A stretch of 64,000 nt of DNA from the NCBI GenBank assembly GCA_944332525.1, contig CALVKD010000022.1, forward strand, positions 2,392 through 66,391, in the 5' to 3' direction. Made by a program: the position numbers and the translations under genes. Below the pieces are notes generated by a model that was not told the DNA's origin, did no database searches, and was given only the letters and a program-made list of their open reading frames with translations. Shown piece by piece: positions 4,056-35,068 of this stretch. Source of the stretch: an uncultured Bacilli bacterium. Its GTDB lineage: Bacteria; Bacillota_I; Bacilli_A; RFN20; CAG-449. Positions within the stretch are counted from its first letter, which is position 1. Each line of letters begins with the position of its first letter.

Positions 4056-4059
4056 TTAT

Positions 4060-6948: not shown

Positions 6949-7390
6949 TAAAATAAAAAATTATTTTATGGATAAATCGGTGTTTTATTTCTTGCTTTTA
7001 GGCTCGGGATTATTAGCATTGATTTCCTCAATTGTTTTCTATGTTTTAGACGTGACTACGATTAAAGGTAATATCACATTTACTGATGATTCATTAATGA
7101 CATTTATCTTCATGCTAATTGGGGTTGCTGGATGTATCTTCGCAGCATTAACTAAGTTTAACTTTGCTCCGTTGATTCCGGTTATCTTCTTTGCATTAGG
7201 ATTTTCACAAAATGTGGTTATGGCCTGCTTCCCAGCAGCAGATATCCTCAAAGGTGTTCCATTCTTTACATCTAATATGGATATCGCTAATAGCACATTT
7301 AGGATATTCTTAATTTTCGGAATATTATTCTTCATTTCCCTGGTACTAAGTATCATTTATTGCTTTGCTTCTAGAGAAAAGAAAAGATAA
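6941..7390 (+). CDS. Small integral membrane protein (4 TM), unknown function
   Basis: Strong RBS AGGAGG 8 nt upstream. 8-nt overlap with the GH3 stop. Four hydrophobic helices. Confidence 0.55.
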   Translation: MLSKIKNYFMDKSVFYFLLLGSGLLALISSIVFYVLDVTTIKGNITFTDDSLMTFIFMLIGVAGCIFAALTKFNFAPLIPVIFFALGFSQNVVMACFPAADILKGVPFFTSNMDIANSTFRIFLIFGILFFISLVLSIIYCFASREKKR

Positions 7391-7395
7391 AGAAA

Positions 7396-7436
7396 ACCCG
7401 GTTATGATCTTCTTAGATTATGACCGGGTATTTTTT
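7396..7436. terminator. Bidirectional rho-independent terminator between convergent genes
   Basis: Imperfect hairpin ACCCGGTTATGATC / GATTATGACCGGGT, flanked by a T-run on the plus strand and a T-rich run on the minus strand. Confidence 0.5.
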
Positions 7437-8520
7437 ATTGGTATTGCGCGTATAATGTCATATCCATATAAATTGGGGTGATGTTGGTAACATGTCCGCT
7501 ATTAGGGGTTAATTCTTTATCGGTGTACCAGCCGACAAATTCAGCTCCTTCTTTATAAGCTAATGGAAGATTGATATATTTTCCTTCTTCAACTTTATAG
7601 GTAATTGGATCGAGAGGATTAACTAAACTTCCTCCGTTTAAATCAAGTGTGATGTAGTAATAGTTTTTCGTTTCAGGAGTATCGACTCCAGCGATAACAG
7701 TCTTTAAAATCCAATTACCATTTTCTTTAACATAGATTTCTCCGGTGCTGAGATTAAAATAGAAGTCGCCATTTTCCCCGTTTTGACTATCTGGAACAGT
7801 TGAACCATATAACCAGGTTGTCGCATGCTCTTTAGAAAAAGATACTTCTTCTTGAGTTCCGTCATCATAATGAATTATTAATTTATAATTATTTTCATCT
7901 TCTTGTGTTTCAATATAGTCAATAGAAACGCCTCTTAAGCCGCGAGGAATTCTAAATTCTACACTTGGAGAATCATCGGTAAAAGAGATTGTTACAATAA
8001 CATCATAGCTAATCGGATCATAAGAAGTTGTAATCTCTTTGATAGAGACGCCGTCTTGGCCTTTAGGGACGATAAAACTAACCGGTGAGGAATCATCCGT
8101 AAAAGAAATTGTTATTTGCTGATTGCCGTTTTCTAGCGTTTCTACATTGATGTTCGCTATTCCTCTTCCGTCGACTCCGTTATACACCGGAATATAAGTA
8201 ACAAATGGTTCTTTATTGCTGTCGGTGAAGGTAATAGTTAATTTTACGCGGTTATATTCTTCTTGGAATTCGCTTGTCACATCTTTAATAGATACGCCTT
8301 CTTGTCCGTCTGCACCTTTAGGCAAAGTAAAGCTGACACTTGGCTTATCTTCGCTATTGAAAGAGATTGTGACAACAGTATTACCCTGATTATCAACGTC
8401 TGTAGTTACATCGCTTATGAGATAGCCAGTTTCTTCTTCAGCAAAAAATCCGCAGGCAGAAAGCGAAGGAAGAGAAAAGACGAGCAGAGTTCCTAAAAGC
8501 AGATTTCTAATTTTTTTCAT
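7435..8520 (-). CDS. Lipoprotein with three ~55-aa internal repeats and a C-terminal Flg_new (Listeria-Bacteroides repeat) domain
   Basis: Lipobox LSACG. Repeated GVSIKDVTSEF / GVSIKEITTSYD / GVSIDYIETQED modules. C-terminal LDLNGGS...GAEFVGWYTDKELTP matches the Flg_new GxxFxGW motif. Last gene of the 11-gene operon, with a 4-nt overlap to the upstream gene. Confidence 0.65.
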   Translation of the reverse strand: MKKIRNLLLGTLLVFSLPSLSACGFFAEEETGYLISDVTTDVDNQGNTVVTISFNSEDKPSVSFTLPKGADGQEGVSIKDVTSEFQEEYNRVKLTITFTDSNKEPFVTYIPVYNGVDGRGIANINVETLENGNQQITISFTDDSSPVSFIVPKGQDGVSIKEITTSYDPISYDVIVTISFTDDSPSVEFRIPRGLRGVSIDYIETQEDENNYKLIIHYDDGTQEEVSFSKEHATTWLYGSTVPDSQNGENGDFYFNLSTGEIYVKENGNWILKTVIAGVDTPETKNYYYITLDLNGGSLVNPLDPITYKVEEGKYINLPLAYKEGAEFVGWYTDKELTPNSGHVTNITPIYMDMTLYAQYQ

Positions 8521-10877
8521 TTGTTACCTCCCCTACTGATCAAATCGTTTTGATCAGGTATTTGATTAAATAATTTATGTTGTTGATCGTTTAAGTAAAA
8601 GCGGAATGCATTCATGCCCATCGCCATTGGAACGCATTTAGCTAATGCCTCGGCAAATTGATTTTCTGAAGGAGTTAAATTTTGACCGCTTAAGCAGGCA
8701 TAAGCGATATCCGCAGTTATTTCTTCACTTAGTGATTCATCATTTAATTTAGAAATATCAAGAGAAGAATTATTATATCCTCCTCCATAGAAACTCACCG
8801 CGGTGCAGAGATAATTTTTGCTATCTTCGTTATAGACTAAATTTTGGTTTTTAGCTAATTTCAGTAAAAGATTCTTGATTGGAAAATAGTTATCAATAGT
8901 TATCTTTTCTCCGTCTCCGAATTCACCTAAGAGCTGACCTAGTCTTTCTTCAATCAAGCACGAAGCATCAAGCGAAGCAATATCTTTATAGTCGTAGAAA
9001 CGGACATCGCCTTCTAAAGAGAGATTAACGCCTTTTTGAGTTCCAGAGATCTTATTTGGAAGAACTGGGTCTTCAAGTAATAAATCGAGAAGCTCTTTAA
9101 CAAAGGAAGGCAAGCCGTTATAGAGATAGATTCCGTTAAAATAAGTATCAAAAGCAATAGAGAACAATCCGGATTGATAGAAATATGTATCTTTGATAGT
9201 CGCATTAGTTTTTTCATCGCTAACATTATCTAAGGCGCTTTGGGTTTGTGATAAAGTCTGCTGAGAAATGTTATTATTGTCAAATAACGATGTGTAATAA
9301 GAATCAGCGTTAAATCCTTGATTTCCGTTTAAAAATTCTCCGCTGGTTAGATTATAGTTCTGATTATTATAATTTATAGTTATATTTTTATTTTCATCAA
9401 CTTGGGTGTATTCATTATTGCCGATTTTGAAAAGAAATTCTCTTGTCTGCATTAGTAGGCAGTTATCGAGTAAGAAGTCATCGCTTGAGAAAACTCTAAC
9501 CCCAGTTCGACCGTTTTTGATAATAGAATTTTTTATTGTAACGTTATTTCCTTTAACATCAATGACTGTGCCGGTGAATTCAAGGTTGTAGAGATTATCT
9601 AAGTTGTTGATATTCTGAATTTTGAGATCATTAACTGTGATATTGTCGCCATCAACATACATATTGACATTATCTTGACCATAAGCTTTGACAAATGGAT
9701 AATCAAATAAACCTAAACTGACAAATGTTAGAGGTCCGGTAAATAAATCGCCTTTTTCTTTGGAAGGGGTCAATTTTCCAGTATATTGATCAATCTCGCC
9801 GTTTTTAGGGTAAGCCAATTCATGGATAGAAATATTAAATCCATTACCGTAAAAATCTTTTTGAACGTGGATAGCCGCGTACAGATAGCTATGCTCAAGA
9901 TAATCATCTTTAAAATACTGTTTGATGTATTCATGGTTATATGTCGTTTCAAATTGATAAACTTCACTTATAAAATTGAAACTTTTCGAAGTAAAATCAT
10001 AATTGCCAAATAATTTTGTATCAGAACTTAAATATTCATTGATATAATTACCGTTTTCGTCTTGCTTATAAGTGTTTTGTAATGATTCGAGATTGGTCTG
10101 TAAACAGACGATTTCGCCATTTTCGCTTTTATTCGTGCAGGATAATAGGTCATTATAGTCATAGACATTTATGCCGTTTTCCACGATTGAGAAGGTATAA
10201 TTTGAGGTGATAAAAGCATTATTCCCCGCGCTTAATTCTAAATAAGCTTCGCCAGATCCATTAAAATAAATAACATTATCGACTAATGATATATTTGGTG
10301 AAATATTCTTAATTAAATAGCTTTGATCGCTATCTTCCGGCAATATTTTGACCTCAATTTCAAAACTAGCTAAAGTCTTTTTGTTGATATCGTGATCTTG
10401 TAAATCATATTGTCCAAAATATCTTTTTTTAGCAATTGAAGATGAAGAGGAGGCGATGTTTTTAGGATTGATGATGACCGCGCCATCTTCGTAAATAATG
10501 GCATTAAAAGATTTTGTCACAGTTTTTTTCTCGTTTTGACAGGTAATTATGACCTCACCTTCATTTAAAGCGAAAAGATAGTATTCATTGTTTTGTTTTT
10601 CAATTTTGGCATAGTCATTATCCGTGTCATCTTTATTGTCAACTGTCCAAACTAAATCATTGCCAGGGGCTAAGGTAAAGTTTTTATCAATAATCGGTTC
10701 AGCCGATAATAAATACCCATCACTAGAAATTTTATAGCCTTCATTTTCTTGATAATTCCAGGATATTCCCGTGATATCGACTTCTAAAGTATTTTTTAAG
10801 ATGGTGATATTGACAAAACCGAGAATTGCGATGACAAAAGGAATTAATAATAAGACGAATAAGGTTTTATTTTTCAT
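8517..10877 (-). CDS. Large secreted or membrane-anchored protein with right-handed parallel beta-helix (PbH1-like) repeats
   Basis: N-terminal hydrophobic signal/anchor. Repeats such as VTIKNSIIKNGRTGVRVFSSDDFLLDNCLL are typical of pectate-lyase-fold beta-helices. Asn/Tyr-rich. 4-nt overlaps on both sides. Confidence 0.5.
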   Translation of the reverse strand: MKNKTLFVLLLIPFVIAILGFVNITILKNTLEVDITGISWNYQENEGYKISSDGYLLSAEPIIDKNFTLAPGNDLVWTVDNKDDTDNDYAKIEKQNNEYYLFALNEGEVIITCQNEKKTVTKSFNAIIYEDGAVIINPKNIASSSSSIAKKRYFGQYDLQDHDINKKTLASFEIEVKILPEDSDQSYLIKNISPNISLVDNVIYFNGSGEAYLELSAGNNAFITSNYTFSIVENGINVYDYNDLLSCTNKSENGEIVCLQTNLESLQNTYKQDENGNYINEYLSSDTKLFGNYDFTSKSFNFISEVYQFETTYNHEYIKQYFKDDYLEHSYLYAAIHVQKDFYGNGFNISIHELAYPKNGEIDQYTGKLTPSKEKGDLFTGPLTFVSLGLFDYPFVKAYGQDNVNMYVDGDNITVNDLKIQNINNLDNLYNLEFTGTVIDVKGNNVTIKNSIIKNGRTGVRVFSSDDFLLDNCLLMQTREFLFKIGNNEYTQVDENKNITINYNNQNYNLTSGEFLNGNQGFNADSYYTSLFDNNNISQQTLSQTQSALDNVSDEKTNATIKDTYFYQSGLFSIAFDTYFNGIYLYNGLPSFVKELLDLLLEDPVLPNKISGTQKGVNLSLEGDVRFYDYKDIASLDASCLIEERLGQLLGEFGDGEKITIDNYFPIKNLLLKLAKNQNLVYNEDSKNYLCTAVSFYGGGYNNSSLDISKLNDESLSEEITADIAYACLSGQNLTPSENQFAEALAKCVPMAMGMNAFRFYLNDQQHKLFNQIPDQNDLISRGGNK

Positions 10878-12478
10878 AGCAATTCACCTCCAATATCGAG
10901 ATAACCCCTAAGAACAATTCTTTTGAAAAAGATAATTAATGTTATCAAAAGTGCTGAAAATAATGCGCTTTCGATTAAATAAATTTCCCATGCTTTAATC
11001 TTCAAAAACGTTAAAGCAAAATGGATAAATGCTAAAATTAACGGCAAAGCTAACCCGTATATTGATGAAAGCGAGGATTTAGAACTAGGATTTCTACTTT
11101 TAAGAATGCGAATATTATCGTATAAGCCGATAAGATTTAAACTGATAATAAAAACTAATCCTAAAAATAAAGATACGAAGAAAACATTTAAAGAAATATT
11201 GCTTGAAGAAATTAATATAATTAAAGAAATAATTAACGATAAAGAAGAAATGCAGGACGGAATTAATATTTTTATTAAACACTGATAAATAGGGGAAATC
11301 GGAATAGTTTTACTGACGATTAAACCTTTGCCTTCTCTTTTTAAAGCATACATTGATTGAGAGGCGATTACCGAAGAAAAGAGAAGAATTAAGGTGATGT
11401 TCAAAGCATTAATCAATTCCGGATAGTAAGTTAATAACATTTCCATATTTACATAGAGTAACGAAGTTAGTGAGGAGATAACGACGTAGGTAAAAAATGG
11501 CTGCATGATTAATAATGAAACATAGGAAGATAGATCATTTGATCCGCGGAAAACTAAAATTAATTCTTTTTTTATCAAAGAAACAAAGATAGAGTCCTTT
11601 TTTACTTTGTTAATGATTTGTTTCTTCTTTTTTTCTTTTGAATCCGTTAGATAAAGATGATAAAAAGTTTCAATTAAGATAAAGGCCAAAGCTAATAAAA
11701 TCATCGTCATTCCTAAATAAATAGCTAAGGAAGAAAGAAGGTTGTCTTGCTTAATAAAGACATCAAGCAGCGAAGATAGAGGAAAGGCGTATTTTGATAA
11801 AGAATCTAAAAAAACGATGAAATCTTGGTTGAAGAGATAATCTAATTTCGAATTATTAATGATATTAAGAAAGAGATTTAAAACAAATTGATAAAGGTAG
11901 CAAAGAACGATAACAATAGCCGCGCTTATCAAGATTTGTAATAAATAATGTTTCTTTAAATAATCGATAAAATATTTATAAGGTATTAATAAAATAAAAG
12001 TTAAAGCCGAGGTAATTAATGAAGCAAAAAATGGATAAAGCGCGCTGAGGACGTAATATGATGCGATGTAGATATTATTAATTCCGTAACTGATAAATAA
12101 CGGAAATGAAAAGAGAAATAGAGTTGCCGTTTCACTTAAATAAATCATCAAAAATTTGGCAATGATTAAATCATCTTTGACCAGTGGTCGGTAGCTTAGC
12201 AATAAAATATCTTTTTCATTAAATAAGAAACGATAGGCTTTATTTAATGAAGAAAATATTGCAAGTAAAGCAACTAAAAGTAAGAATAAGACTAAAAATC
12301 CATAATTAGATCCCTTTGAGAATACTTCAATCTTTTTATTTACTGAAATAAAGATAAAAGTTTCCAAAGCGATAAATAAGGCGCAAAGCAAAAGAGAAGA
12401 AATAATCTTTATAATTCTCCTTTTTTTATTAACCTCATTTTGTTCTTTGAAATCTTTAATCAGTAAATCAAGAATCAT
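10874..12478 (-). CDS. ABC transporter permease (polytopic, roughly 10-12 TM)
   Basis: Highly hydrophobic throughout with many predicted helices. Directly downstream of, and overlapping, an ABC ATPase gene. Confidence 0.6.
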   Translation of the reverse strand: MILDLLIKDFKEQNEVNKKRRIIKIISSLLLCALFIALETFIFISVNKKIEVFSKGSNYGFLVLFLLLVALLAIFSSLNKAYRFLFNEKDILLLSYRPLVKDDLIIAKFLMIYLSETATLFLFSFPLFISYGINNIYIASYYVLSALYPFFASLITSALTFILLIPYKYFIDYLKKHYLLQILISAAIVIVLCYLYQFVLNLFLNIINNSKLDYLFNQDFIVFLDSLSKYAFPLSSLLDVFIKQDNLLSSLAIYLGMTMILLALAFILIETFYHLYLTDSKEKKKKQIINKVKKDSIFVSLIKKELILVFRGSNDLSSYVSLLIMQPFFTYVVISSLTSLLYVNMEMLLTYYPELINALNITLILLFSSVIASQSMYALKREGKGLIVSKTIPISPIYQCLIKILIPSCISSLSLIISLIILISSSNISLNVFFVSLFLGLVFIISLNLIGLYDNIRILKSRNPSSKSSLSSIYGLALPLILAFIHFALTFLKIKAWEIYLIESALFSALLITLIIFFKRIVLRGYLDIGGELL

Positions 12479-13206
12479 AATTTTTCTCCGTAAACCTTAA
12501 AGAAAATGGTTTTTAAATTCTTTCTTTTGAACGGCTCCTTGTTTAAATCAATTAAAAGATCAATTTTTCCGTCATTGATAATTGCGACGCGGTCGCAGAT
12601 TTCTGCGACTAAGTCAATATTATGGGAAGTAACAAAAATCGTATTCTTATTTTGAACATAGCTTTTCATCATTTTGACTAATGTTTCATAAACGATGATA
12701 TCTAATCCGACAGTCGGTTCATCGAGAACCCAAAGCGATGGATTATGAATTAAAGAAGCCATTAAACAGATTTTTTGTTTCATGCCATGCGAATATTCTT
12801 TAATTGGGCGAAGCAAATCTTCATCGGCTAATTCAAATTTATTTTTTAAAAAGTTAAAATTGCTTTCAAAGGCTTCTTGGCTCATTTGATAGCAGGAGGC
12901 GATAAATTCAAGATATTCTTTTCCGCTCATGATTTCATAAGTAAGAGGTTCACTTGGAACATAGCCAAAATTGTTTTTGACTTCTAAAGGTTTGGTTTTA
13001 ATATCGAGATTATCAATTAAAATTTGACCTTCATTAAATCTTTTTAAACCAATCATGCAATCAATTAATGTCGACTTACCCGCGCCATTTTTGCCTAATA
13101 AGCCAAAAATTTCTCCTTTATCTACGCTTAAAGAGATTCCTTTTAGGACCTCTTTATTGCCATATGATTTGTGAAGGTTAATTATTTCAATTGCTTTATT
13201 TTCCAT
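12475..13206 (-). CDS. ABC transporter ATP-binding protein
   Basis: Walker A GKNGAGKST, signature YSHGMKQK, Walker B WVLDEP, H-loop SHN. Confidence 0.85.
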   Translation of the reverse strand: MENKAIEIINLHKSYGNKEVLKGISLSVDKGEIFGLLGKNGAGKSTLIDCMIGLKRFNEGQILIDNLDIKTKPLEVKNNFGYVPSEPLTYEIMSGKEYLEFIASCYQMSQEAFESNFNFLKNKFELADEDLLRPIKEYSHGMKQKICLMASLIHNPSLWVLDEPTVGLDIIVYETLVKMMKSYVQNKNTIFVTSHNIDLVAEICDRVAIINDGKIDLLIDLNKEPFKRKNLKTIFFKVYGEKL

Positions 13207-14524
13207 ATAAGCCTCCCCAGAGAGATTTTAACCAGATTAATTTTGCTTGACCTTTATTAATAAGTGCGAGAGAAGAATTGCAGTTAGGGCAGAAAAAGTT
13301 ATCTTGATCGAAACGTTTATCTTCCTTTAAAGAGAGTTTTCCGCAGATAGGACATTTTTTAGATAACGAGCCTTTGACTGTTAGCCTTAATGATAAGAAG
13401 ATATCATCTAAGCTAACCCGTGAATCTTTTTTAGACAAAACATCAATCTCTAAGATATTCTTATTTTGTTTAGATTTATTTATTTGACAGATATAGAATA
13501 CATTATCAAATTCTTCAAAGATTGCTTCATCTAATTCTTCTTTGATTATGATTAAGTTTTTTGTATAGTTATCACCATATTTAACTTCAAGATAAAGATA
13601 ATTGTCGATTTTGTTAAATTTATATGTAAATCCATCTTTAGAGCAAATTAAATCAGTTATTTGAATTTGATTATCGCTAAAAGTGAGCGATGATGTTTTA
13701 TTAAAGCGATATTTATTTTCAATTAAAGTTTCTAAAATTTTTAAGGTTACGTAATTTACAAACATCGAATCATCATTATTTCTTTTAAGATTAGTTCGAT
13801 AAAAGCGGTAGAGATAATAATACTTTTGATCATGTAATAAGATATTTGTTGGAATAATCGGTAAAGATATTGTTTCTTTTGATAAGAGTTTATAAAACGA
13901 TGTCTGTTCAATCCTTTTCCCTTTCGCGTATACTTTGTTAATCAATTGATTGTCTTGATTATCATCGCTAAGTAAGGCGGAAATATTTTTATTATTCTCC
14001 GTGATATCGTTTACTAAACTGTTTTCAGAAAAAGTTATCTGTTCTTGCTTATAAAGATTCTCTAAGGAATTTCCTAACGGATTATCTTTATAGAATTTAT
14101 TGATGTCTTGCATCAACAAATTAAAAACATAGATTACAAATTTGTTTTCATAAGTGATGATATCTTCTTTGGAAGATTTACTATAAACGTATTCAGGAGC
14201 TAAATTTTGACCCTTTCTTTTCCACAGAGAAGAATCGCGTAAGGTATTGATATAGTCTTCATTATCAATTTGATAAGACTGTTCGCTTCTAATTAATAAA
14301 GTCTCAGGACTATTTAAATAATGCGGTGATGAAGCGATAGAAAGAATAACATCAAAAAGATAGTTAATGTCTTTGATATAACTATTAAGCAGAGAATTAG
14401 TGTTGTTTGTTAAATGAATTTTATCATCGTTTAATAATTCTTCAAACGTTGTTAAAGAAACACAGTTAGAAAGATAACTGGTTAATTCATCATTCAATTT
14501 TGCGTAATAGTTAATTTCTTTCAT
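13196..14524 (-). CDS. Hypothetical protein with a candidate PD-(D/E)xK nuclease-like motif and a C-terminal C4 zinc ribbon; possible McrC-like partner of the upstream McrB-family NTPase
   Basis: C-terminal CPICGK...CPNC. SKDGFTYKFNKIDNYLYLEVKYG gives a D...hhhEhK pattern. Starts 1 nt after the McrB-like gene and overlaps the ABC ATPase gene. Confidence 0.35.
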   Translation of the reverse strand: MKEINYYAKLNDELTSYLSNCVSLTTFEELLNDDKIHLTNNTNSLLNSYIKDINYLFDVILSIASSPHYLNSPETLLIRSEQSYQIDNEDYINTLRDSSLWKRKGQNLAPEYVYSKSSKEDIITYENKFVIYVFNLLMQDINKFYKDNPLGNSLENLYKQEQITFSENSLVNDITENNKNISALLSDDNQDNQLINKVYAKGKRIEQTSFYKLLSKETISLPIIPTNILLHDQKYYYLYRFYRTNLKRNNDDSMFVNYVTLKILETLIENKYRFNKTSSLTFSDNQIQITDLICSKDGFTYKFNKIDNYLYLEVKYGDNYTKNLIIIKEELDEAIFEEFDNVFYICQINKSKQNKNILEIDVLSKKDSRVSLDDIFLSLRLTVKGSLSKKCPICGKLSLKEDKRFDQDNFFCPNCNSSLALINKGQAKLIWLKSLWGGLYGK

Positions 14525-14525
14525 C

Positions 14526-16370
14526 TTAGAATCTTCTTAATAGTTTTTTTATGAATTGCTTAGATAATGTAAAATCTTCTTTTGAATAAGTTTTGTTAAT
14601 TAAATCAAGTAAGTCTTCTAAACCTTGTTCGACATAGTCTTCAAAGCGTCCATCGAGTTTATTTAAGATTTTACGGCAGAGCATAAAATCAAGAGCGTCT
14701 TCTTTTCTTCCTCCAGCAGCAACAAAAACTGGGGTGAACAGAATAATTTGGTTGAGAATACGGTTACCAAATGTTACATCAAATGTCTCATAGATATAAT
14801 CTGTAAGGATTTTAAATTTTGCTAAATCATCTTTTGATAATTGATAATCTTCGTTATTTTGAGCTTCAGAGAATAAAGACTGCAATTTGCTATAGGAGAG
14901 AGTGATTTTCTCTGTTTCTCCTTCTACTGGGAAATAATCATTTTGCTCATTAAAGGAAATAGTGATAGCCCGGTCATAGACTTTATCAGTGATGGTATAA
15001 GTCGAGTCATCTTTATTAGCAGTTCCGATAAAATAAGTTGTCGGAGCGATATCGAGAATTCCATTTTCTAAATGATCTGGTGCAGTAAAATTAAACGGCA
15101 AGTTCATGATTTTTAATTTCCATTGATCAATAGGATATTCAAGAATTGATAAGAAATCAGCAAAGTAATATTCAACGCGCGAGATATTCATTTCATCAAG
15201 AACCATGATATTGATATGGTTATCTCTATAAGTAGCTTGATATAAACGCTTTAAGAATTCTGTTTCATTATAAGATTTAGAGAAATCATTATAGTAACCT
15301 AATAATGATGTTCTATCTCTCCATGTTGCTTGTACTGGAGTAAAGAAAGACTCTTCGCTGATAAATTCTGAGAAATATCTCGCTAATGAAGATTTACCGG
15401 TTCCTGATAAACCTTCAAGAATGATTAATCTTGAGGCTGATAAAGCTGAAATAAAGCAGCGGATAGTATTGATATCAAAATAGAGTTTTTCTTCTTTAGC
15501 TAAATAATTTCTAAATTTGGTAACTAAGTCAGGTAAGGTAATATCATCATTAAATTCTTCATTTTGATATGTTGCTAAGACATCAATTTCACATAGAGAA
15601 GGGAAAACCTTTTCTTTAGTGAGTTCTTCATTATCGGATATAGGTGAAGCAACAGCTTGGTTAACTAAGGATGAATTATTAACTGAAGCTGCAGAAGAAG
15701 GTGAAACTTCACCAAAAGTTTCTGCTAGATGACCTTGTTTAACTTGGTCATTGAGTTCTTTTTCTTCTTGTTTCCTTTCTTCGCTTTCTTGCTCTTTTGT
15801 TTCTTTATTGAAGAAGCGGAAAGGTTTATCAATTGATTTTAAATTGATAACTAGCATTGCTGCGAATAAAACAATTGAGCCGAGAATAATGAAAATAATT
15901 AATCCGACAAATAAGGATTCTAGAACGAATAAAAAGGAATTTCCAACATATTCCCAGTTAACCGGAATATGAGCGATAATGCCAATTACTGACGCTAAAA
16001 TAAGGCAGATAAAGAATGTTGCAACATAAATGCCTATCCATTTTAATGATGCAGCTTTTTCTTCATAATATTTAGCTAAACGCATTTCATAGATAAATGC
16101 CGCGGCAAATAGTAATGAATAAACGATTACCATGCTAAATAAAATATATGTACCAAATGAGGCATCAATGCTCGGTAAGGATAATATTTTTCCTAGCATC
16201 TGAATTGGATTATCTTCTTTCATTAAGCCTTTTGCGTCTAGACATAATCCTGAAAATACAGTGACTAGTAAATAGAAATAAACTATCGCTAGAGCAATAA
16301 AGTTTTTTCTTGTGAAATGTGTTTTAAATCTCGGTTTTTCCATGTTTATTTCCTCCATCTCCATAAGCAC
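14526..16370 (-). CDS. Membrane-anchored McrB-family AAA+ GTPase/ATPase (4 N-terminal TM helices, charged linker, C-terminal AAA_5/McrB-like domain)
   Basis: GTG start (ORF-track M). Four hydrophobic helices in the first ~180 aa, then an E/K-rich linker. Walker A ILEGLSGTGKSSLA. Walker B MVLDEMNISR resembles McrB DEINRAN. IGTANKDDS resembles the McrB NTAD motif MNTADRS. Confidence 0.55.
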   Translation of the reverse strand: MLMEMEEINMEKPRFKTHFTRKNFIALAIVYFYLLVTVFSGLCLDAKGLMKEDNPIQMLGKILSLPSIDASFGTYILFSMVIVYSLLFAAAFIYEMRLAKYYEEKAASLKWIGIYVATFFICLILASVIGIIAHIPVNWEYVGNSFLFVLESLFVGLIIFIILGSIVLFAAMLVINLKSIDKPFRFFNKETKEQESEERKQEEKELNDQVKQGHLAETFGEVSPSSAASVNNSSLVNQAVASPISDNEELTKEKVFPSLCEIDVLATYQNEEFNDDITLPDLVTKFRNYLAKEEKLYFDINTIRCFISALSASRLIILEGLSGTGKSSLARYFSEFISEESFFTPVQATWRDRTSLLGYYNDFSKSYNETEFLKRLYQATYRDNHINIMVLDEMNISRVEYYFADFLSILEYPIDQWKLKIMNLPFNFTAPDHLENGILDIAPTTYFIGTANKDDSTYTITDKVYDRAITISFNEQNDYFPVEGETEKITLSYSKLQSLFSEAQNNEDYQLSKDDLAKFKILTDYIYETFDVTFGNRILNQIILFTPVFVAAGGRKEDALDFMLCRKILNKLDGRFEDYVEQGLEDLLDLINKTYSKEDFTLSKQFIKKLLRRF

Positions 16371-19000
16371 ATTGTTGTATCAAAATAGAATTGACCATAA
16401 CCAGCAGTTATTGGTGTCGCTGATGATGTTTTTTCATATACTACAGTACCATCACTAGTCCAGCTAGGATCCTTATTTTTATCTAGAAGTTCTCTAATGG
16501 AATCAGTACTGTTATATAGACTCTTATCTGAAGCTTTTACAATAACATTATTCAAATAATTATCAATTGTACTGGAAGTATCTTTGAATGTAGAGTTATA
16601 TCTGCTCGCATCTGCGTTGATATTTACATTGTTACCATAGCTACCATATTCAAAAGATGAATTTTCCAAATATGTTATAGATATATTATTTGTCCATAGA
16701 CTATTATCTGTTGGAGCAAGGGGTTTCTCGTCCCAATATCCATATTTAATTGACGCTTCGGCAGTATATGATAAATTCAATGGTAATGCTTCAATAAAAC
16801 TTCCTGCAAAGTTTATGTACCAACGATTATTCTTTTTAACTGCTAAATTTAATGTCATATTTTCATAAACAGGTTCACCAGTTTGGTAATCTGTTGTAGT
16901 TTGGACTTTGATAGTTTGACTAAATACATCATCGGCTGTTTGATATGATTCAGATTTAGAAGGTGTTATTCGAGGAGTAGTATTTCCGTTGTTTGGCCAA
17001 AAGTAGAAATAAGTATTACCGTTTGAATCAGTATAAGTATTATCGTAATAGTTAAATGATGAATTATTATTGTGAGATTTAGGGTAGATAAAGATTGAGG
17101 ATAACGCTCCATCATTTAAATTGTCTAAGATAGCTTTTGTTAGAGCGTCTTTACTTAATCCACCCAAAATAAAATCACGAATTAATTTTGCTATGTCAAC
17201 ATTATCCATGCTACTGCTGCCACGGAAATAACAAGACCAATCATCATCTAGCTTTGAAAATTCAGATGAATTGTTCTTAAAATTGCTGTTATTTGTGAGA
17301 TTAATGTTTCCACCTAATCTGTTATTATTACCGGAAACTGTTAAAGTACCATCAATAGTTACATCCGGTAAGTCTGTAATTTTATTCCATTCGGCATAGA
17401 GAGAATTACTTCCATATGGATTTATTGTATAGTAGACAGGATAAAGGAAATTATTTAAAGTCATCAATCCAGCATTATCGCTAAAATGTACTGACGAGGA
17501 TGTGTCACAATAGACTTTACTTCCTGGGAACATATCAACTCTTTGAGTCCAAGTGAATGATGAACTATGTGTTAATTTTAAGTTAATCCAAGGTGGAATT
17601 GGAAAGTGGACACCAACCATATCTAGTGTTACACCAATTGGTGGTAAACGATCAGACACTGAGAATTCTAAATTCATTTTTAATGAGTTTAACTGTATTT
17701 CCGCATTATTTGCCGTGTATATTTCATCATAATTAACATACGGAAGATATTTTCGATAATCTGTTTTTGTGGAATCAATTGTATGCATGCCTTCAACAGA
17801 ACGAATGATGTAGGAATCAGAAGAATTACGCGTATTTGATAATAGGAATGTATTATCAGGCCCAATAACATTCATAATCGTTCGATTATATGCGCTATAA
17901 GCGAAGAGTTCAGTTAAACCATATAATTTTCCGCCATATTCGAATTTAATGGTTGTATTGATATAAGGCATTGAAAATAACGAGAAAGGAACACTTTTTG
18001 AAGTATATGATCCGACAGTATGTCCGCCGCCACCAAAGTCTTCAACTAAGAAACCAGAATAAATAGAAGCATTATTTTTAACTGTTATCTGACCTTCTCC
18101 TGTTGAATCATAAATCAAGCCATGGCCGTAAATTGTTGATCCATCCTCCATCGTTATGGTATGTCCGTTTAAATCTAAGGCAGTATATTTTCCAGATATG
18201 ACATGGCCAGAAAGTCCAGATCCACTTGTACCATTTTGGGCTTCTAAGACTAATTTTGCATTAGATTCAAGAGTTAAATCATTTTGTAAAACTATAGTGA
18301 TTAAATTATTCGCGGCAGTAACTGCGCTATAAGCATGAGAAGCACTAGCACTGCTTGGATTATTAGTAAAAGTAGTTTCATCAGAATAATTGGTCCCGTC
18401 GTTAAGAACAAATTTTACTGTCTTATTACTAATATTAGTAACGCTTAATGGAACATAAGTATTAATTGCTTCGCCGCTACCATTAGCGCCTGGATCAAAA
18501 ATCGCTGTGCCGCTATTTTGTGAAGTTGGAGATGAGTTATAATTTAATTTTATAACCGGTGCTGAACTATCGTTAATATAGTCTGACATCGTATAAGAAG
18601 AATAATCTTTTTCGACCTTAGTTATTTCAATTTTTGTAATCTTATTGCCGTTAAGAGGATCTTCGATATGGTAATTATTTGAAGAATCATCAAAAAGATA
18701 TTCAGTATTTGTAACTGTTTTATTGTTATAAGAAAGAGTTGTTTTAACTTCTAGTCCTTCAAAATGAGTATCAGTTGAACTCAATGAAAATGGTAAGCTA
18801 ATATCATCACCGATATCACCCATCATTTCATAGGTTTTACCTTGTCCGTCATTAACGATAATTGAGATATCACCGTTTTCCCCGGTCAAAGATACCATAT
18901 TGTTTGTAAGCACGATAAAAGTACCATTGGCTACGATTAAACTAGACATGGTAATAAAGATTAACATTGCTAATAAAGTTTTAAATTTGAAATGTTTCAT
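16346..19000 (-). CDS. Large secreted Asn/Ser/Thr-rich protein, probable beta-helical surface protein
   Basis: N-terminal signal/anchor (LIFITMSSLIVANGTF). Gly-rich repeats (NGTSGSGLSGHVISG...GHTITMEDGSTIYGHGLIYDSTGEG). 884 aa with no catalytic motif recognised. 25-nt overlap with the downstream gene. Confidence 0.45.
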   Translation of the reverse strand: MKHFKFKTLLAMLIFITMSSLIVANGTFIVLTNNMVSLTGENGDISIIVNDGQGKTYEMMGDIGDDISLPFSLSSTDTHFEGLEVKTTLSYNNKTVTNTEYLFDDSSNNYHIEDPLNGNKITKIEITKVEKDYSSYTMSDYINDSSAPVIKLNYNSSPTSQNSGTAIFDPGANGSGEAINTYVPLSVTNISNKTVKFVLNDGTNYSDETTFTNNPSSASASHAYSAVTAANNLITIVLQNDLTLESNAKLVLEAQNGTSGSGLSGHVISGKYTALDLNGHTITMEDGSTIYGHGLIYDSTGEGQITVKNNASIYSGFLVEDFGGGGHTVGSYTSKSVPFSLFSMPYINTTIKFEYGGKLYGLTELFAYSAYNRTIMNVIGPDNTFLLSNTRNSSDSYIIRSVEGMHTIDSTKTDYRKYLPYVNYDEIYTANNAEIQLNSLKMNLEFSVSDRLPPIGVTLDMVGVHFPIPPWINLKLTHSSSFTWTQRVDMFPGSKVYCDTSSSVHFSDNAGLMTLNNFLYPVYYTINPYGSNSLYAEWNKITDLPDVTIDGTLTVSGNNNRLGGNINLTNNSNFKNNSSEFSKLDDDWSCYFRGSSSMDNVDIAKLIRDFILGGLSKDALTKAILDNLNDGALSSIFIYPKSHNNNSSFNYYDNTYTDSNGNTYFYFWPNNGNTTPRITPSKSESYQTADDVFSQTIKVQTTTDYQTGEPVYENMTLNLAVKKNNRWYINFAGSFIEALPLNLSYTAEASIKYGYWDEKPLAPTDNSLWTNNISITYLENSSFEYGSYGNNVNINADASRYNSTFKDTSSTIDNYLNNVIVKASDKSLYNSTDSIRELLDKNKDPSWTSDGTVVYEKTSSATPITAGYGQFYFDTTMCLWRWRK

Positions 19001-19003
19001 CTT

Positions 19004-20005
19004 TTATTCTTTCTTTTTTGAATTTATCGTTTTTTCATTTACTTTAATTTCGCCATTAAGGTTATCAATAACTTTCATGGTTCCTTCTTCAGTATCAGCT
19101 TCTTCTTTAGAAATAAATTTTCCGTTTTCGAATATATAGCGATATCCTTTATAAATTAATTCTTGATGAAATGTATTAGTTATTGATTCTTCAATATCAT
19201 CAAAGTCTTTGATTAAATCGGTTAAAAGCAAAGTTCTTTCTTGAATAGCTTTTTCATATTTGCTGCGGTAATGGTCAAACATGAAGTAGCAATAAATAAT
19301 CGCGATAATGGTAATTATTCCGGCACCTGATTGAAGAAAGATAATAAAGATTCCTACCATTGGAATTTTGGTACCAGTATACTTACCGACAATTTTATCA
19401 AATGTTAAATAATTTCCGTATTGCGATTGAGAATCATCGGTATTATTTGCATCGCCTTGAGTGAGAAAATGATATTGATTATCAACAATATCTATTCTGA
19501 CAACTCTATGAACGATTGTGACATTGTTATTGTTTTTAAAAGCGATTATATCATATAGTTTGATATCTTCGGGATTATTGACTTTTTTGATAGTTATTAC
19601 ATCATATGTTGCAATTTGGTTATTCAGATGGTTATCGATAAGATAGGTGTTTTCAGGATTCTTTTTTTCCATTGATCCTGAAGCGATAACAACGACTGAT
19701 GTATCATTAATCATCAAATTATCGTTAAAACGGTTGATGATAGAAAAAGTCAAAAATAAGAGAATAATGGCAAAAAGAATATAAGTTAAAGTTTTTCCTA
19801 ATATAGAAAATACTTTTTTTGTCTTACTTTTTGCTTTTTGCTCATCAATGATTGCTTGATCAATTAAACTGATGTCTTCTTTTCCTTCTTCAATATTAGC
19901 GATATTGTATTTAAAGTAATATCTAAATAATACGGTAAATACTGCTGAAAACGAAAGAAGGCAGATGAGAGTTACGACCAAGGATAAAATCTCAATGTTA
20001 CTCAT
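19004..20005 (-). CDS. sipW: Sec11/SipW-type (S26B, archaeal/ER-type) signal peptidase I with extra N-terminal TM segment and long C-terminal cytoplasmic tail
   Basis: Catalytic boxes VVIASGSMEKKNPEN (SGSME Ser box), TIVHRVV (His box) and LTQGDANNTDD (KGDNN-like box). Flanking TM helices. ORF-track TTG start at 20047 is replaced by the ATG at 20005, 2 nt after the upstream stop. Confidence 0.7.
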   Translation of the reverse strand: MSNIEILSLVVTLICLLSFSAVFTVLFRYYFKYNIANIEEGKEDISLIDQAIIDEQKAKSKTKKVFSILGKTLTYILFAIILLFLTFSIINRFNDNLMINDTSVVVIASGSMEKKNPENTYLIDNHLNNQIATYDVITIKKVNNPEDIKLYDIIAFKNNNNVTIVHRVVRIDIVDNQYHFLTQGDANNTDDSQSQYGNYLTFDKIVGKYTGTKIPMVGIFIIFLQSGAGIITIIAIIYCYFMFDHYRSKYEKAIQERTLLLTDLIKDFDDIEESITNTFHQELIYKGYRYIFENGKFISKEEADTEEGTMKVIDNLNGEIKVNEKTINSKKKE

Positions 20006-20621
20006 CGTCGTATACCGAAATTGCAAAGATTGAAGAATCTGCTGCAATATTTAAATAGCTAAGAATTTTCGATAAGTTATCATTAGGTGATATTTCCCCA
20101 TAGTTTAACTGACAGGAAATGTTTAAATAATAATCAGTATTAATAGAAACGTTACCATCGACAATTTTAAAAGTCATTGAATCGGCAGGAGTAGTTACTA
20201 TTGACGATGGAGAAAAAGTTACTAGACTGCTTTTCTCTCCGATATATTTAGAAATTGTTAAAGAAGTTTGCAAAGCATTGTTTTTCTGTAAATAGGTCGC
20301 ATTTAAATTTTGTAAATCAATATCAATATTAATTAAATTTAAATTCTCATTAGATAAAAAAGATACTGGTAAAGAAAATGTCATACTTGCAGAACTTATT
20401 GATCCTGTTTGCACTTCTTTTTCATAACGGTAACTAACTTTATTTGAAGTAATCGATAGAATTTTACTTTGGTTATTTTTAGTTTCAACAGTCGCGGCAT
20501 TAACTTGAAATGTTATATCTTGACTTTGATTACCTGTAGTTAACCAAGTTGAAAAGCCAACGCTGATTAGACTAAGCGTTGCAATAGCTAATATCAGATT
20601 GACTTTTCCTAACTTGATCAT
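19998..20621 (-). CDS. Small secreted protein with SipW-cognate-type signal peptide (TasA/CalY-like candidate), paralog 3
   Basis: N-terminus MIKLGKVNLILAIATLSLISVGFSTW. 207 aa, in the size range of camelysin/TasA proteins. Immediately upstream of the SipW-like peptidase. Confidence 0.5.
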   Translation of the reverse strand: MIKLGKVNLILAIATLSLISVGFSTWLTTGNQSQDITFQVNAATVETKNNQSKILSITSNKVSYRYEKEVQTGSISSASMTFSLPVSFLSNENLNLINIDIDLQNLNATYLQKNNALQTSLTISKYIGEKSSLVTFSPSSIVTTPADSMTFKIVDGNVSINTDYYLNISCQLNYGEISPNDNLSKILSYLNIAADSSIFAISVYDDE

Positions 20622-20632
20622 ATTGATTAATT

Positions 20633-21367
20633 TTATGCTGGAACGTATGAAGTTAATGTAATTGTAAATTTTTGACCATTTAAAGCTTTAAGTGCTTCTA
20701 ATGCGGTGATGACATCATCTAAATTGTCATCATTTGCAAATTTAGAAGGATTAAGATTGATTCCTTCAACTGCAAATGCACTTCCCCAAGCAAAAGAATA
20801 TGTCGCGGTGACTTTTAAGTCAGTATTACCGTCACCTGCTGCCTCAAATGTTAAACCGTTGCCTTCATCACCTGGAAGGGGTGTTCCGGTTTTATGTGCA
20901 AATAAACTAGTATTAGAATCAGTTAATGCGTTTCCATTTCTTTGAGGTGCGGTAATATAATTTTCCCCGATTAAATTGCTATAAGCAGATGGATTATCCC
21001 ATTTAATATAAACTCCGACATCCTTTGTAAAATTACCTTCGGCGTTTAATACATCGCTGATGGTAAAAGAAAAGTTAAAAGTTAAATCTTCATAACTTTC
21101 TCCGTCCCAAACAATCGGACCCTCATCATCATCTTTTTTTGCATCAAATACAATGTCTTGATCAGTTGAAGTAATTTCACTTATAACAAAGCGCTTATCG
21201 CTGACATCGCTAACGGATACGTTGAAATCATTAAATGTTTTGGTGCTTGTGCTTTGAATTACCCATGATGAAAAAGCTACTCCAACAAGAGAGACAGCAG
21301 CTAATCCAAAAAGAGAACCAGTAAGAATTTTAACTTTTGTCATTTTATTCATAATTAAATCCTCCAA
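20633..21367 (-). CDS. Small secreted protein with SipW-cognate-type signal peptide (TasA/CalY-like candidate), paralog 2
   Basis: N-terminus ...LVGVAFSSWVIQSTSTKTFNDF; compare TasA LVGGGTWAAFNDI and CalY IGGGTFAFFSD. Shares C-terminal motifs (FAWGSAF, ALNGQKFTITLTS) with paralog 1. Confidence 0.55.
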   Translation of the reverse strand: MEDLIMNKMTKVKILTGSLFGLAAVSLVGVAFSSWVIQSTSTKTFNDFNVSVSDVSDKRFVISEITSTDQDIVFDAKKDDDEGPIVWDGESYEDLTFNFSFTISDVLNAEGNFTKDVGVYIKWDNPSAYSNLIGENYITAPQRNGNALTDSNTSLFAHKTGTPLPGDEGNGLTFEAAGDGNTDLKVTATYSFAWGSAFAVEGINLNPSKFANDDNLDDVITALEALKALNGQKFTITLTSYVPA

Positions 21368-22153
21368 TTATTTTTTTTCGGCCACTACTTCGGCAGTGAG
21401 AGTTAGTTGTTTGCCATGGAGAGCAGTATGCAAAGCTTTAAGCTCTTGAGTAATTTTATTCGCGGCATCAGTTTCATCTTCATATGTCATTGAGTTATAG
21501 TAATTGGCCGGTGACATTTCGTTAAAGAAACTGCCCCAACGGAAATCAAGAACTTTACCTTGGAGAGTTATGACCGTTAAGGCTCCATCAGTTGCCGTTT
21601 CTTGATTTGTTAAGTCAATTTCTGCTGGGGCGGCAAGATATTCCCAAGAATCGTTGGCTTCTAAGCCAGTTGATGACATAGCAGTTTTTTGAGTTACGCG
21701 TGAATCACCTAATAAATTCTCTTCATCTTGCGTAAGGTTAGGAGTGTTGACAGCATAAGTACTGTCGTCATATTTCAAAGAGAATTTTAAAGTTAGATTT
21801 TGTGTTCCTTTATCAAAAAATTCTGAACCATATTTTAATGTAATATCCGCGGTAACCTGTAATGCTGTTGGGTCAAAAGCTCCTTCGTCGGTTTTAACTA
21901 AATTACTATCATTTTCTGTGAGCTTAACATTTTCTTTAAGCTCTATGAGACTATCTGTTAGTGATACAGAAAAATCAACAGAAGTATTCTTTACTGTATC
22001 AACGTTGATTGTGGCTGTTGCGTCATCGGTATTATTATTGACTCCAACAATATAGGTTGCAAAACCTGTTGTCAGCAACGCAACTCCGGCAAAGGCCATA
22101 ATGCCGGTAACTACCCATTTTCTCCTGGTAGTCAGGTTTGTTTGCTTTTTCAT
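21368..22153 (-). CDS. Small secreted protein with SipW-cognate-type signal peptide (TasA/CalY-like candidate), paralog 1; first gene of the operon
   Basis: N-terminus KWVVTGIMAFAGVALLTTGFATY. 261 aa. FRWGSFF and ALHGKQLTLTAEV are paralogous to gene 20633-21367. Confidence 0.5.
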   Translation of the reverse strand: MKKQTNLTTRRKWVVTGIMAFAGVALLTTGFATYIVGVNNNTDDATATINVDTVKNTSVDFSVSLTDSLIELKENVKLTENDSNLVKTDEGAFDPTALQVTADITLKYGSEFFDKGTQNLTLKFSLKYDDSTYAVNTPNLTQDEENLLGDSRVTQKTAMSSTGLEANDSWEYLAAPAEIDLTNQETATDGALTVITLQGKVLDFRWGSFFNEMSPANYYNSMTYEDETDAANKITQELKALHTALHGKQLTLTAEVVAEKK

Positions 22154-34833: not shown

Positions 34834-35006
34834 AATAGTTATCCATTTTGTTTATCTAAATCCCCTCTATGTTTTTAATAAACGCAAAAGTAACTATGTT
34901 TTAAGTATCCCATATATATATACATAATCATCACCCCTACACTTATAACAGATATACTGATTATAATATCACTTTATTTAGAAAAAACAATTAATTTATA
35001 TAGATT

Positions 35007-35050
35007 AAAAAAGTGAACCAATTATGTCTTTTTGATTTAATTGATTCACT
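35007..35050 (-). terminator. Rho-independent terminator after the MacB-like gene
   Basis: AGTGAACCAATT / AATTGATTCACT stem with one mismatch, followed by TTTTTT on the minus strand. Confidence 0.5.
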
Positions 35051-35068
35051 AAGCAATGTTAAGTATGA

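Follow-up and report, generated by a model that had tools for sequence, protein, structure and literature searches.

Why should an NTPase resembling the motor of a restriction enzyme be embedded in the membrane and encoded amid genes for secreted proteins? This question is raised by a locus on contig CALVKD010000022.1 (assembly GCA_944332525.1) of an uncultured Bacilli bacterium, of which a stretch of 64,000 nucleotides, here termed the window, was analysed. The original prediction had identified two genes on the minus strand as a membrane-tethered McrB-family AAA+ GTPase and a McrC-like partner, and both open reading frames lie where it had placed them (14526..16370 and 13196..14524, respectively), 1 nt apart and translationally coupled. 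All features given below are likewise on the minus strand unless otherwise indicated.

The AAA+ domain and its membrane anchor

The NTPase is a protein of 614 aa (612 aa in its database copy) which matches AAA_5 and in which the three motifs initially reported, LEGLSGTGKS (aa 318–327), VLDEMNISR (aa 390–398) and GTANKDDS (aa 449–456), were all recovered. Across 38 homologues, GLSGTGKS, VLDE.NISR and TANKD.S are invariant; the L and E of the extended Walker A motif, the M of Walker B, the G of GTANKDDS and D455 are not, D455 being conserved in at least 90% of these proteins. In a set of 55 diverse relatives, invariant positions comprise G320, G323, G325 and K326 of Walker A (GLSGTGKS, aa 320–327; 15390..15413), D392, E393 and N395 of Walker B (VLDEMN, aa 390–395; 15186..15203), and N452 and D454 of a shortened McrB signature, N452-K-D454-D455 (‘NxD[DE]’; 15006..15017). 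The protein carries both a Walker A motif of the form GxxGxGK[ST] and a Walker B motif of the form hhhhDE followed by N, and GTANxD[DE] is present in nearly all of 150 representatives of the family. The Nx(x)D signature, as defined by Bell et al. (eLife 2024, PMC11090510), includes an NxD form that is usually followed by D or E.

Profile comparisons place the domain with McrB and not with MoxR, as had been proposed. The family profile aligned with E. coli McrB over 233 columns that take in Walker A, Walker B and the signature motif (hhalign 97.3%, E 2.5e-11), as opposed to 3% for RavA, and McrB was the only significant AAA+ match among PDB sequences (hmmsearch, 4e-6). The published E. coli CoCoNuT protein CnuB shares 36% identity with the NTPase (E 2e-14). 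No AAA_3/MoxR Pfam match was detected for the 614-aa protein, and its fold did not come out as closest to McrB. Judged by its sequence, the protein is a McrB-family AAA+ NTPase of the ‘NxD’ branch of Bell et al. Homologues number more than 5,900, and plasmid-borne relatives are fused to EVE or DUF3578 domains and are followed by annotated DUF2357 genes. The AAA+ domain is also matched by the PADLOC candidate model PDC-M26A (6.6e-39).

The N-terminal portion of the NTPase (aa 21–178; 15837..16310) contains four transmembrane helices (aa 21–44, 72–101, 109–132 and 139–178) according to both hydropathy and an AlphaFold model, in which these helices have pLDDT values of 80–94 and the protein as a whole a pLDDT of 76. 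They are followed by a charged, E/K-rich linker (aa 179–250; 15621..15836), modelled with low confidence (about aa 180–250) as a helix at aa 190–219 and disordered thereafter. The four helices and the linker of the original prediction are borne out in this respect, and the positive-inside rule suggests that the N-terminus and the AAA+ domain are cytoplasmic. The 4-TM proteins form a separate neighbour-joining clade (bootstrap 58%). Relatives with a single transmembrane helix align with the fourth helix and the linker; they gave faint DivIC/FtsL matches only, and a family search returned no DivIC/FtsB match for the 614-aa protein.

A partner lacking a nuclease site

The partner (442 aa; 13196..14524) consists of a DUF2357 (McrC N-terminal) domain (aa about 55–280; 13685..14362), a β-rich domain without conserved catalytic residues and a C-terminal zinc ribbon with Zn_Ribbon_TF-type matches (C391-P-x-C394-G … C412-x-x-C415; 13280..13354). 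PF09823 was matched by 43 of 75 orthologues (best 2.1e-11), the window’s own protein remaining below the Pfam DUF2357 threshold. The family profile aligned with a RefSeq DUF2357 protein across aa 55–280 of the window’s partner protein (hhalign 95.1%, E 3.3e-8), and hhalign produced no alignment with E. coli McrC. Within this region P110, E126-N127 and Y235 are invariant, and Y125 and T226-N227 nearly so. Of 79 orthologues, at least 97% share the CPxCG…CxxC ribbon.

The same 79 orthologues show no conservation in the columns of K296-D297…E313-V314-K315, nor of any D, E or K between aa 268 and 365, and no nuclease Pfam family was matched by the 75 orthologues searched. The KD…EVK sequence, put forward as a PD-(D/E)xK active site, is a letter match only. 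The McrC-like nature of the partner is upheld by its DUF2357 domain, and the zinc ribbon is retained, but the proposed PD-(D/E)xK site is not.

The surrounding operon and its conservation

The pair lies within an operon of about 15 kb. Upstream are genes for three small secreted proteins: protein 1 (261 aa; 21368..22153), a putative SipW substrate or filament subunit with basic residues and a hydrophobic helix at its N-terminus and the motif GFATY; its paralogue, protein 2 (244 aa; 20633..21367; VAFSSW); and protein 3 (207 aa; 19998..20621; VGFSTW). A GF[AS]xW-type motif was found in 145 of 156 paralogues and orthologues of these proteins. They are followed by the gene of a SipW/archaeal-type signal peptidase I (347 aa; 19004..20047), which has SGSM, HR and GDAN motifs and matches TIGR02228 (1.1e-18) and the SipW model (3.3e-15); translation may in fact begin at the ATG at 20005. 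Between sipW and the NTPase gene an 884-aa secreted protein without a family match is encoded (16346..19000), a variable insert seen at this position only in the window and in two further loci (L005 and L006). Downstream, the partner gene overlaps by 11 nt the gene of an ABC transporter ATPase (243 aa; 12475..13206; ABC_tran 5.5e-27), after which come a 12-TM permease (534 aa; 10874..12478; PF16949 2.7e-6, with PF09847 matches on orthologues), an exported protein of 786 aa (8517..10877) that probably contains a right-handed β-helix (Beta_helix was matched by five of 28 orthologues, best 3.3e-5), and a lipoprotein with an LSAC lipobox and a Listeria-Bacteroides (Flg_new) repeat (7435..8520; Flg_new 4e-11). 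A 15-bp G+C-rich hairpin between convergent genes (7396..7429, no strand assigned) is the probable terminator.

The order small secreted proteins, SipW, GTPase, partner, ABC ATPase, 12-TM permease, β-helix protein and Flg_new lipoprotein is colinear in 53 of 58 complete species-level loci from Bacilli and Clostridia, in agreement with the proposal that the membrane-tethered pair is embedded in a secretion-type operon. The sipW gene is directly upstream of the GTPase gene in 72 of 74 loci, and the partner gene is, as anticipated, kept in homologous loci (76/77). The ABC ATPase (74/75), the permease (70/71), the β-helix protein (64/65) and the lipoprotein (58/61) are retained to a similar degree. 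At least 583 matches were obtained in species-representative genomes, and the operon, with the pair at its centre, is kept in hundreds of gut Firmicutes species. The pair also occurs without the operon, and hence without the ABC transporter, in one genome (L084), and the single-TM relatives are encoded between sipW genes and genes of secreted proteins with an ‘AWFT’ motif, again without an ABC transporter. The N-termini of the small proteins of single-TM loci aligned with small protein 1 (hhalign 86.6%). The neighbourhood in the window is that of an ordinary chromosome (GH3, AdhE, Rnf, PGM), and no full-length copy of the NTPase was present in the plasmids and phages searched.

A restriction-type motor with a probable role at the cell envelope

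The association of SipW with paralogous, motif-bearing small secreted proteins implies a surface or matrix structure. Since none of 40 small proteins matched a TasA/camelysin (Peptidase_M73) or pilin family (Pfam, NCBIfam and PDB sequences), the term ‘filament’ is a guess from the SipW association. This surface-protein context, together with the nuclease-less partner, points to a restriction motor that has been re-used for work at the cell envelope rather than for DNA-cutting defence. In the explanation that we favour, and consider reasonably probable, the pair is a membrane-anchored McrBC motor derivative which has lost its restriction function and acts at the cytoplasmic face as the engine or regulator of SipW-dependent surface assembly.

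An anti-phage or anti-DNA-entry system had been suggested for the pair; in such a system the tethered ring would sense or translocate incoming nucleic acid and the effector would be encoded elsewhere in the operon. This reading would accord with the homology to McrBC, the PDC-M26A match of the AAA+ domain, the predicted defence role of the related NxD CoCoNuTs (PMC11090510) and a zinc ribbon that could bind nucleic acid. However, the NTPase has no DNA-reader domain, the partner has neither a nuclease motif nor a nuclease family match in its orthologues, and PADLOC returned no match for the partner, so that the components of a catalogued system are incomplete. The missing nuclease, a synteny with SipW and secreted proteins that is invariant in two classes, unlike that of patchy defence islands, and a housekeeping chromosomal context devoid of full-length plasmid or phage copies render this role quite unlikely. 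The other function originally envisaged, recruitment of the NTPase to export machinery, comes closer, although the tie is to SipW and the surface proteins and not to the ABC transporter. That the pair serves as an accessory dedicated to the ABC exporter, gating or powering the 12-TM permease, is suggested by the overlap of the partner and ABC ATPase genes and by the near-constant presence of ATPase and permease after the pair. It is nonetheless unlikely, as the single-TM relatives keep sipW and secreted proteins in the absence of an ABC transporter, the L084 pair is likewise without one, and the permease already derives its energy from the ABC ATPase.

A nucleic acid-handling organelle may also be envisaged, whereby a SipW-dependent filament takes up or exports DNA with the McrB-like ring as translocase and the zinc-ribbon partner as clamp. 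This we regard as very unlikely, being pure analogy: canonical McrB translocates DNA (PMC11090510), the ribbon stays invariant though the nuclease is lost, and the host lineages, whose genomes are reduced, probably rely on uptake, yet no DNA-binding domain was detected and the operon showed no competence genes. Finally, a MoxR-type chaperone ATPase which, together with an unrelated helical adaptor, would bring a surface complex or a metallo-protein complex to maturity is highly improbable in view of the 3% obtained with the RavA profile against 97% with McrB, the absent AAA_3/MoxR match, the NxD signature and CnuB similarity, which point to McrB, and a partner that is a DUF2357 protein rather than a VWA protein.

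As to how an McrBC-derived motor might serve surface assembly, solved McrBC complexes offer an analogy, from which we infer the nucleotide specificity, oligomeric state and partner–ring interaction of the pair. The NTPase would form a hexameric ring beneath the membrane, held by 24 transmembrane helices, and would bind and hydrolyse GTP (or ATP), stimulated by the DUF2357 stalk of the partner entering the ring. Via the linker, conformational work could then reach the membrane domain, where it might aid the extraction, polymerisation, anchoring or release of SipW-processed subunits and other exported proteins of the operon. A more specific version is put forward tentatively, namely a hitherto uncharacterised kind of envelope machine in which a membrane-built McrB ring and a nuclease-dead McrC plug drive the assembly, extrusion or anchoring of a SipW-processed surface filament. 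Its hosts, in what is an equally guarded proposal, would be gut Bacilli (RF39/RFN20/Acholeplasma-like) and Christensenellales-like Clostridia, amounting to at least several hundred species. Retention of an operon of about 15 kb in many small-genome, mostly uncultured gut lineages suggests that its product is probably a major surface structure, which would be relevant to colonisation, adhesion or host interaction. If the proposal is true, monoderms would possess a fourth solution to filament assembly besides sortase pili, type IV pili and passive TasA polymerisation; the system would constitute a clear case of exaptation, in which a motor of nucleic acid restriction has been turned to tasks involving proteins or the envelope, and would provide a handle on force transmission by McrB-type rings. 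A PADLOC-style AAA+ match to a McrB-like candidate is not in itself a sign of defence.

Compared with canonical McrBC Type IV restriction enzymes (E. coli and T. gammatolerans; PDB 6HZ4, 6UT5/6), the system shares the AAA+ domain with its Walker A, Walker B and Nx(x)D motifs, the McrB-then-McrC gene order with tight coupling, and a DUF2357/McrC N-terminal partner. It differs in that transmembrane helices replace the N-terminal DNA-reader domain, the signature is NxD instead of NxxD, the partner lacks PD-(D/E)xK catalytic residues, and the setting is a secretion operon rather than restriction-modification. The nearest AAA+ sequence relatives outside the transmembrane forms are the CoCoNuTs (CnuB/CnuC) of the same NxD branch, to which a coiled-coil class without transmembrane helices among the 150 representatives is linked. 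Zinc ribbons, and nuclease domains that have been inactivated, are frequent among CnuC homologues (PMC11090510); CoCoNuTs, however, are cytoplasmic, and the long coiled coils, the RNA-binding domains and the nucleases (HEPN or other) that they carry were not found in the window system. In the SipW-TasA and SipW-BsaA biofilm-fibre operons of B. subtilis and C. perfringens (PMC11580942), too, sipW is accompanied by genes of several small secreted paralogues whose signal peptides end in a distinctive motif, but these operons are devoid of an AAA+ motor, a McrC-like protein and an ABC transporter.

The closest counterpart is CoCoPALM, the name under which Bell et al. (2024, PMC11090510) mentioned, in a single paragraph and without characterising them, NxD homologues of McrB that have a TM anchor and an association with signal peptidases; the earlier statement that a membrane-anchored McrBC-like pair is not a described architecture is thereby overturned. 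In both systems a TM-anchored NxD McrB-like GTPase and an adjacent DUF2357 McrC homologue are associated with genes for signal peptidases and with proteins that are putative components of pili or filaments. The single-TM loci of our collection (L087–L166) fit the published description, and have in common with the 4-TM loci both sipW and small proteins whose N-terminal motifs are related. In contrast to CoCoPALM, which has one FtsB-like transmembrane helix and long coiled coils, the window GTPase has four helices and a single charged helix of about 30 residues (aa 190–219). Its partner is compact (442 aa, with the zinc ribbon) as against 650–850 aa in the single-TM loci, which also encode two short SipW proteins instead of one long one, and the ABC ATPase, 12-TM permease, β-helix protein and Flg_new lipoprotein are additional to CoCoPALM-like loci. 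The window system is probably to be counted within the CoCoPALM class, as a 4-TM form linked to an ABC transporter. A supplementary figure of Bell et al. may already cover the 4-TM form; the class was flagged in 2024 and is not sighted here for the first time, and to it the present analysis adds its anatomy, its distribution and a distinct ABC-linked 4-TM subtype.

The ATPase, its family and its partner

The genes for the 614-aa ATPase (14526–16370, minus strand) and its 442-aa partner (13196–14524, minus strand) lie 1 nt apart among the window ORFs, and all motif letters quoted in the original prediction are present, those of the ATPase being LEGLSGTGKS (aa 318–327), VLDEMNISR (aa 390–398) and GTANKDDS (aa 449–456). 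Hydropathy analysis and an AlphaFold2 model (mean pLDDT 76; 80–94 in the TM region) were concordant in placing the four proposed TM helices at residues 21–44, 72–101, 109–132 and 139–178, and in the model these are followed by a charged helix (190–219), a disordered stretch and an α/β AAA+ domain whose C-terminal part is helical. Both ends of the membrane region, the N-terminus and the AAA+ domain, are presumed to be cytoplasmic, because the N-terminus is basic and the number of helices is even.

Searched alone, the 614-aa protein barely reached Pfam AAA_5 (1.3e-4), and its top PDB sequence match, E. coli McrB, was marginal (E of 0.05). An exhaustive HMMER search identified 7,867 representative ATPase relatives, 691 of them with E≤1e-30, and a profile of 55 diverse relatives matched E. 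coli McrB in hhalign with a probability of 97.3% (E 2.5e-11, 233 columns), whereas the MoxR-type RavA reached 3%; when the PDB sequence set was searched with this profile, McrB (4e-6) was the sole significant AAA+ protein. The 55-relative alignment shows no variation at the glycines and lysine of Walker A, at D392-E393-x-N395 or at T450, N452, D454, S456 and T457, and the conserved signature is N-x-D followed by D or E, as against NxxD in classical McrB. NxD is described as diagnostic of a large branch of McrB-like GTPases by Bell, Makarova, Wolf and Koonin (eLife 2024, PMC11090510). A fragment of a published E. coli CnuB, from the cytoplasmic CoCoNuT systems of this branch, matched the window protein with 36% identity (E 2e-14) across the first part of the AAA+ domain; it was taken from the supplement of Bell et al. 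(PMC11090510), where the sequences are cut at 500 aa. More distant plasmid-borne relatives were EVE- or DUF3578-fused McrB-type proteins, and at both plasmid loci examined (n=2) the next gene is a RefSeq 'DUF2357 domain-containing protein'. A homologue of the AAA+ domain is also encoded on an unannotated human-gut 'Bacteriophage sp.' contig (MT835511.1:39950-41107; 34% identity, E 5e-46), the match being confined to that domain.

At the level of sequence families, the predicted McrB-like assignment therefore holds, and the ATPase is placed in the NxD branch of the McrB family. Foldseek comparison of the model, which had been suggested as a check of the fold, is at odds with this placement as it returned weak matches only, to MCM, dynein and RavA; the original prediction had held that a non-McrB clade would speak against the family, and formally this outcome does so. 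It may nevertheless be read as a low-resolution result rather than an exclusion, since all three fall within one AAA+ superclade and the model contains low-confidence loops.

The partner is fast-evolving, with just 13 word-index matches and an orthologue identity of 20–34%; a further word-index search with the partner alignment contributed next to no new homologues. Pfam DUF2357 was matched by 43 of 75 orthologues from syntenic loci (best 2.1e-11), and the family profile aligned to a RefSeq DUF2357 protein (95.1%, E 3.3e-8) over window residues 55–280, while direct hhalign comparison with E. coli McrC gave no match. As DUF2357 is the McrC N-terminal domain, which enters and activates the McrB ring according to Bell et al. 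(PMC11090510), the proposed McrC-like character stands for the N-terminal half of the partner only. Among 79 orthologues, residues of at least 90% conservation fall into two regions, the DUF2357 part (I63, P67, R79, F91, W101, P110, E111, D120, Y125-E126-N127, F210, T226-N227, Y235 and Y242) and the Zn ribbon (four cysteines and a proline; C391-P-x-C-G…C412-P-N-C415 in the window). The letters K296-D297…E313-V-K315, taken in the original prediction for a candidate nuclease motif, do occur in the window partner; this reading was dropped as the columns are variable across the 79 orthologues. Since, additionally, residues 268–365 include no conserved acidic or lysine position in this set and no nuclease family was matched by the orthologues, sequence comparison identifies the partner as a nuclease-less McrC homologue. 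Nuclease loss is a trend reported for many NxD-branch McrC homologues by Bell et al. (PMC11090510).

The operon and its surroundings

In the window, 11 closely packed minus-strand genes run from 22153 to 7435, mostly with 1-nt gaps or overlaps of 4–25 nt at their junctions. The largest overlap, 50 nt, is between the gene at 19998–20621 and the sipW ORF (19004–20047, minus strand), and given this overlap the start of SipW may be the ATG at 20005. The SipW product matched the archaeal/SipW-type signal peptidase I model (1.1e-18) with its SGSM, HR and GDAN motifs kept; at ~350 aa it is nearly double the length of B. subtilis-type SipW, with extra N- and C-terminal extensions. An 884-aa secreted protein of no matched family is encoded between sipW and the GTPase gene (16346–19000, minus strand); its gene is a local insertion, shared at this junction by just the window and the two loci most closely related to it. 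Homologues of this protein in other loci occupy different locus positions. A promoter scan gave a signal no higher than background, while a 15-bp perfect G+C-rich hairpin (7396–7429) between the operon end and a convergent gene (6941–7390, plus strand) is a probable bidirectional terminator.

When GTDB species were scanned with one genome each, at least 583 matching stretches were obtained, the best 80 of which are from MAGs of both Bacilli and Clostridia. Compared with the window's own proteins as queries, the loci begin with the small secreted protein(s) and SipW, continue with the GTPase, the partner, the ABC ATPase and the 12-TM permease, and close with an ~800-aa protein and a Flg_new lipoprotein; the operon was colinear in 53 of 58 loci of adequate length, in agreement with the secretion-type operon originally proposed. 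The partner, whose retention had likewise been anticipated, was at its expected position in 76 of 77 loci, as were SipW (72/74), the ABC ATPase (74/75), the permease (70/71), the β-helix protein (64/65) and the lipoprotein (58/61); the 786-aa operon protein probably contains a right-handed β-helix. The tightly coupled GTPase/partner pair thus has a fixed place in the middle of a conserved operon, where it is invariably associated with exported proteins and a signal peptidase. The small secreted proteins, 2 to 6 per locus, have in common a basic N-terminus with a hydrophobic helix; the motif GF[AS][AST]W occurs in 145 of 156 of them, and they also share W-G-x-x-F…P at the C-terminus. A TasA/camelysin identity was considered for them and dropped, as searches with TasA, camelysin, pilin and SipW-cognate signal models gave no match.

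The surroundings are ordinary chromosome of low G+C (about 30–38%) with GH3, AdhE, Rnf/ApbE and phosphoglucomutase genes, and the window holds no tRNA gene and no mobile-element signature. The nearest genome record is an uncultured Bacilli MAG (98% identity), and relatives are labelled Candidatus Onthovivens, Enteromonas, Acholeplasmatales, Anaeroplasmataceae, Mollicutes and Christensenellaceae/Clostridia. Elsewhere in the window are three tandem MacB-like genes for fused ABC-ATPase/FtsX-permeases (30974–37876, minus strand; 643, 643 and 935 aa), a GH3 glycosidase (4039–6948, plus strand) of permuted domain order, with the Pfam 'C-terminal' domain (aa 91–330) ahead of the 'N-terminal' catalytic domain (aa 668–850), and, within the Rnf/ApbE region (about 44–58 kb), an RnfD/NqrB-family protein (45509–47452, plus strand) of unusual length (647 aa; domain at aa 6–324).

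Related architectures

The nearest 150 ATPase representatives fell into three architectures: the 4-TM form of the window (550–720 aa), a form of about 500 aa with 1–2 TM helices and faint DivIC/FtsL matches, and a TM-less, highly charged, CoCoNuT-like form (700–870 aa). These groups separated in a rough neighbour-joining tree of the AAA+ domain, but the tree did not recover their branching order; bootstrap support was 58% for the 4-TM clade and ≤44% for the 1-2-TM group as well as for the deeper branches. In 80 metagenomic loci retrieved for the 1-2-TM form, small proteins bearing the motif T[YFV]AWF[TS] are followed by sipW, the GTPase and a large DUF2357 protein (650–850 aa), then often by a second sipW, and lastly by further secreted proteins, one of ~1,800 aa; an ABC transporter adjoined the pair in none of the 80. 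Two sipW paralogues flank the pair in these putative CoCoPALM loci, and the motif-bearing secreted proteins include giants of 1,000–2,400 aa. At a locus of a second type, L084:9449-12504 (MAG Bacillales bacterium UBA6380), a 555-aa 4-TM GTPase and a 461-aa DUF2357 partner occur where both sipW and the ABC block are missing. Their neighbours are two large lipoproteins and a secreted protein of 589 aa that contains a collagen-like GxxGxxG run, so the pair can occur outside the canonical operon, still amid surface proteins.

Possible function and relation to CoCoPALM

That the pair is a dedicated accessory of the ABC transporter is suggested by gene order in the window; it is unlikely, as the 1-2-TM loci and L084 hold relatives without the transporter. 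The anti-phage role put forward in the original prediction is quite improbable, as the nuclease is missing, the synteny is fixed and no full-length copy was found on plasmids or phages. The Zn ribbon is the sole point in favour of a DNA-handling organelle, which is very doubtful, and a MoxR-type chaperone is scarcely credible, the profile comparisons with McrB and RavA being contrary to it. With high confidence, the pair is an NxD McrB-like motor with a nuclease-dead McrC homologue, related to CoCoPALM; the chances of a role in surface assembly are evenly balanced, and the favoured explanation as a whole is somewhat probable. Judging from solved McrBC complexes and the genomic context, a hexameric NTPase ring would be tethered by the TM helices to the inner face of the membrane and activated by the DUF2357 stalk of the partner. 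The ring would turn nucleotide hydrolysis into motion of the membrane domain, and this motion may help SipW-processed proteins, possibly a filament, to be assembled, extruded, anchored or turned over.

The architecture had been considered undescribed; however, CoCoPALM, comprising TM-anchored NxD McrB homologues tied to signal peptidases, was already published by Bell et al. (PMC11090510), who leave its analysis to a later paper. No later paper on CoCoPALM or PDC-M26 was found in the literature, and the accessible portion of their supplement (PMC11090510) holds no CoCoPALM details. The 1-2-TM loci match the published description, and the small proteins of the 4-TM and 1-2-TM systems were related in profile comparison, the match (86.6% probability, E 4.5e-6) being confined to the N-terminal 57 columns. 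The system in the window belongs to a class already known though experimentally untouched; it occurs widely among gut Firmicutes, and its mechanism is intriguing. With CoCoPALM it has in common SipW, small secreted proteins that bear a motif, an NxD GTPase anchored by TM helices and a partner with DUF2357, and it is therefore a CoCoPALM relative, but it differs in its four TM helices without long coiled coils, its compact partner with a terminal Zn ribbon and its extra block of ABC, 12-TM, β-helix and lipoprotein genes.
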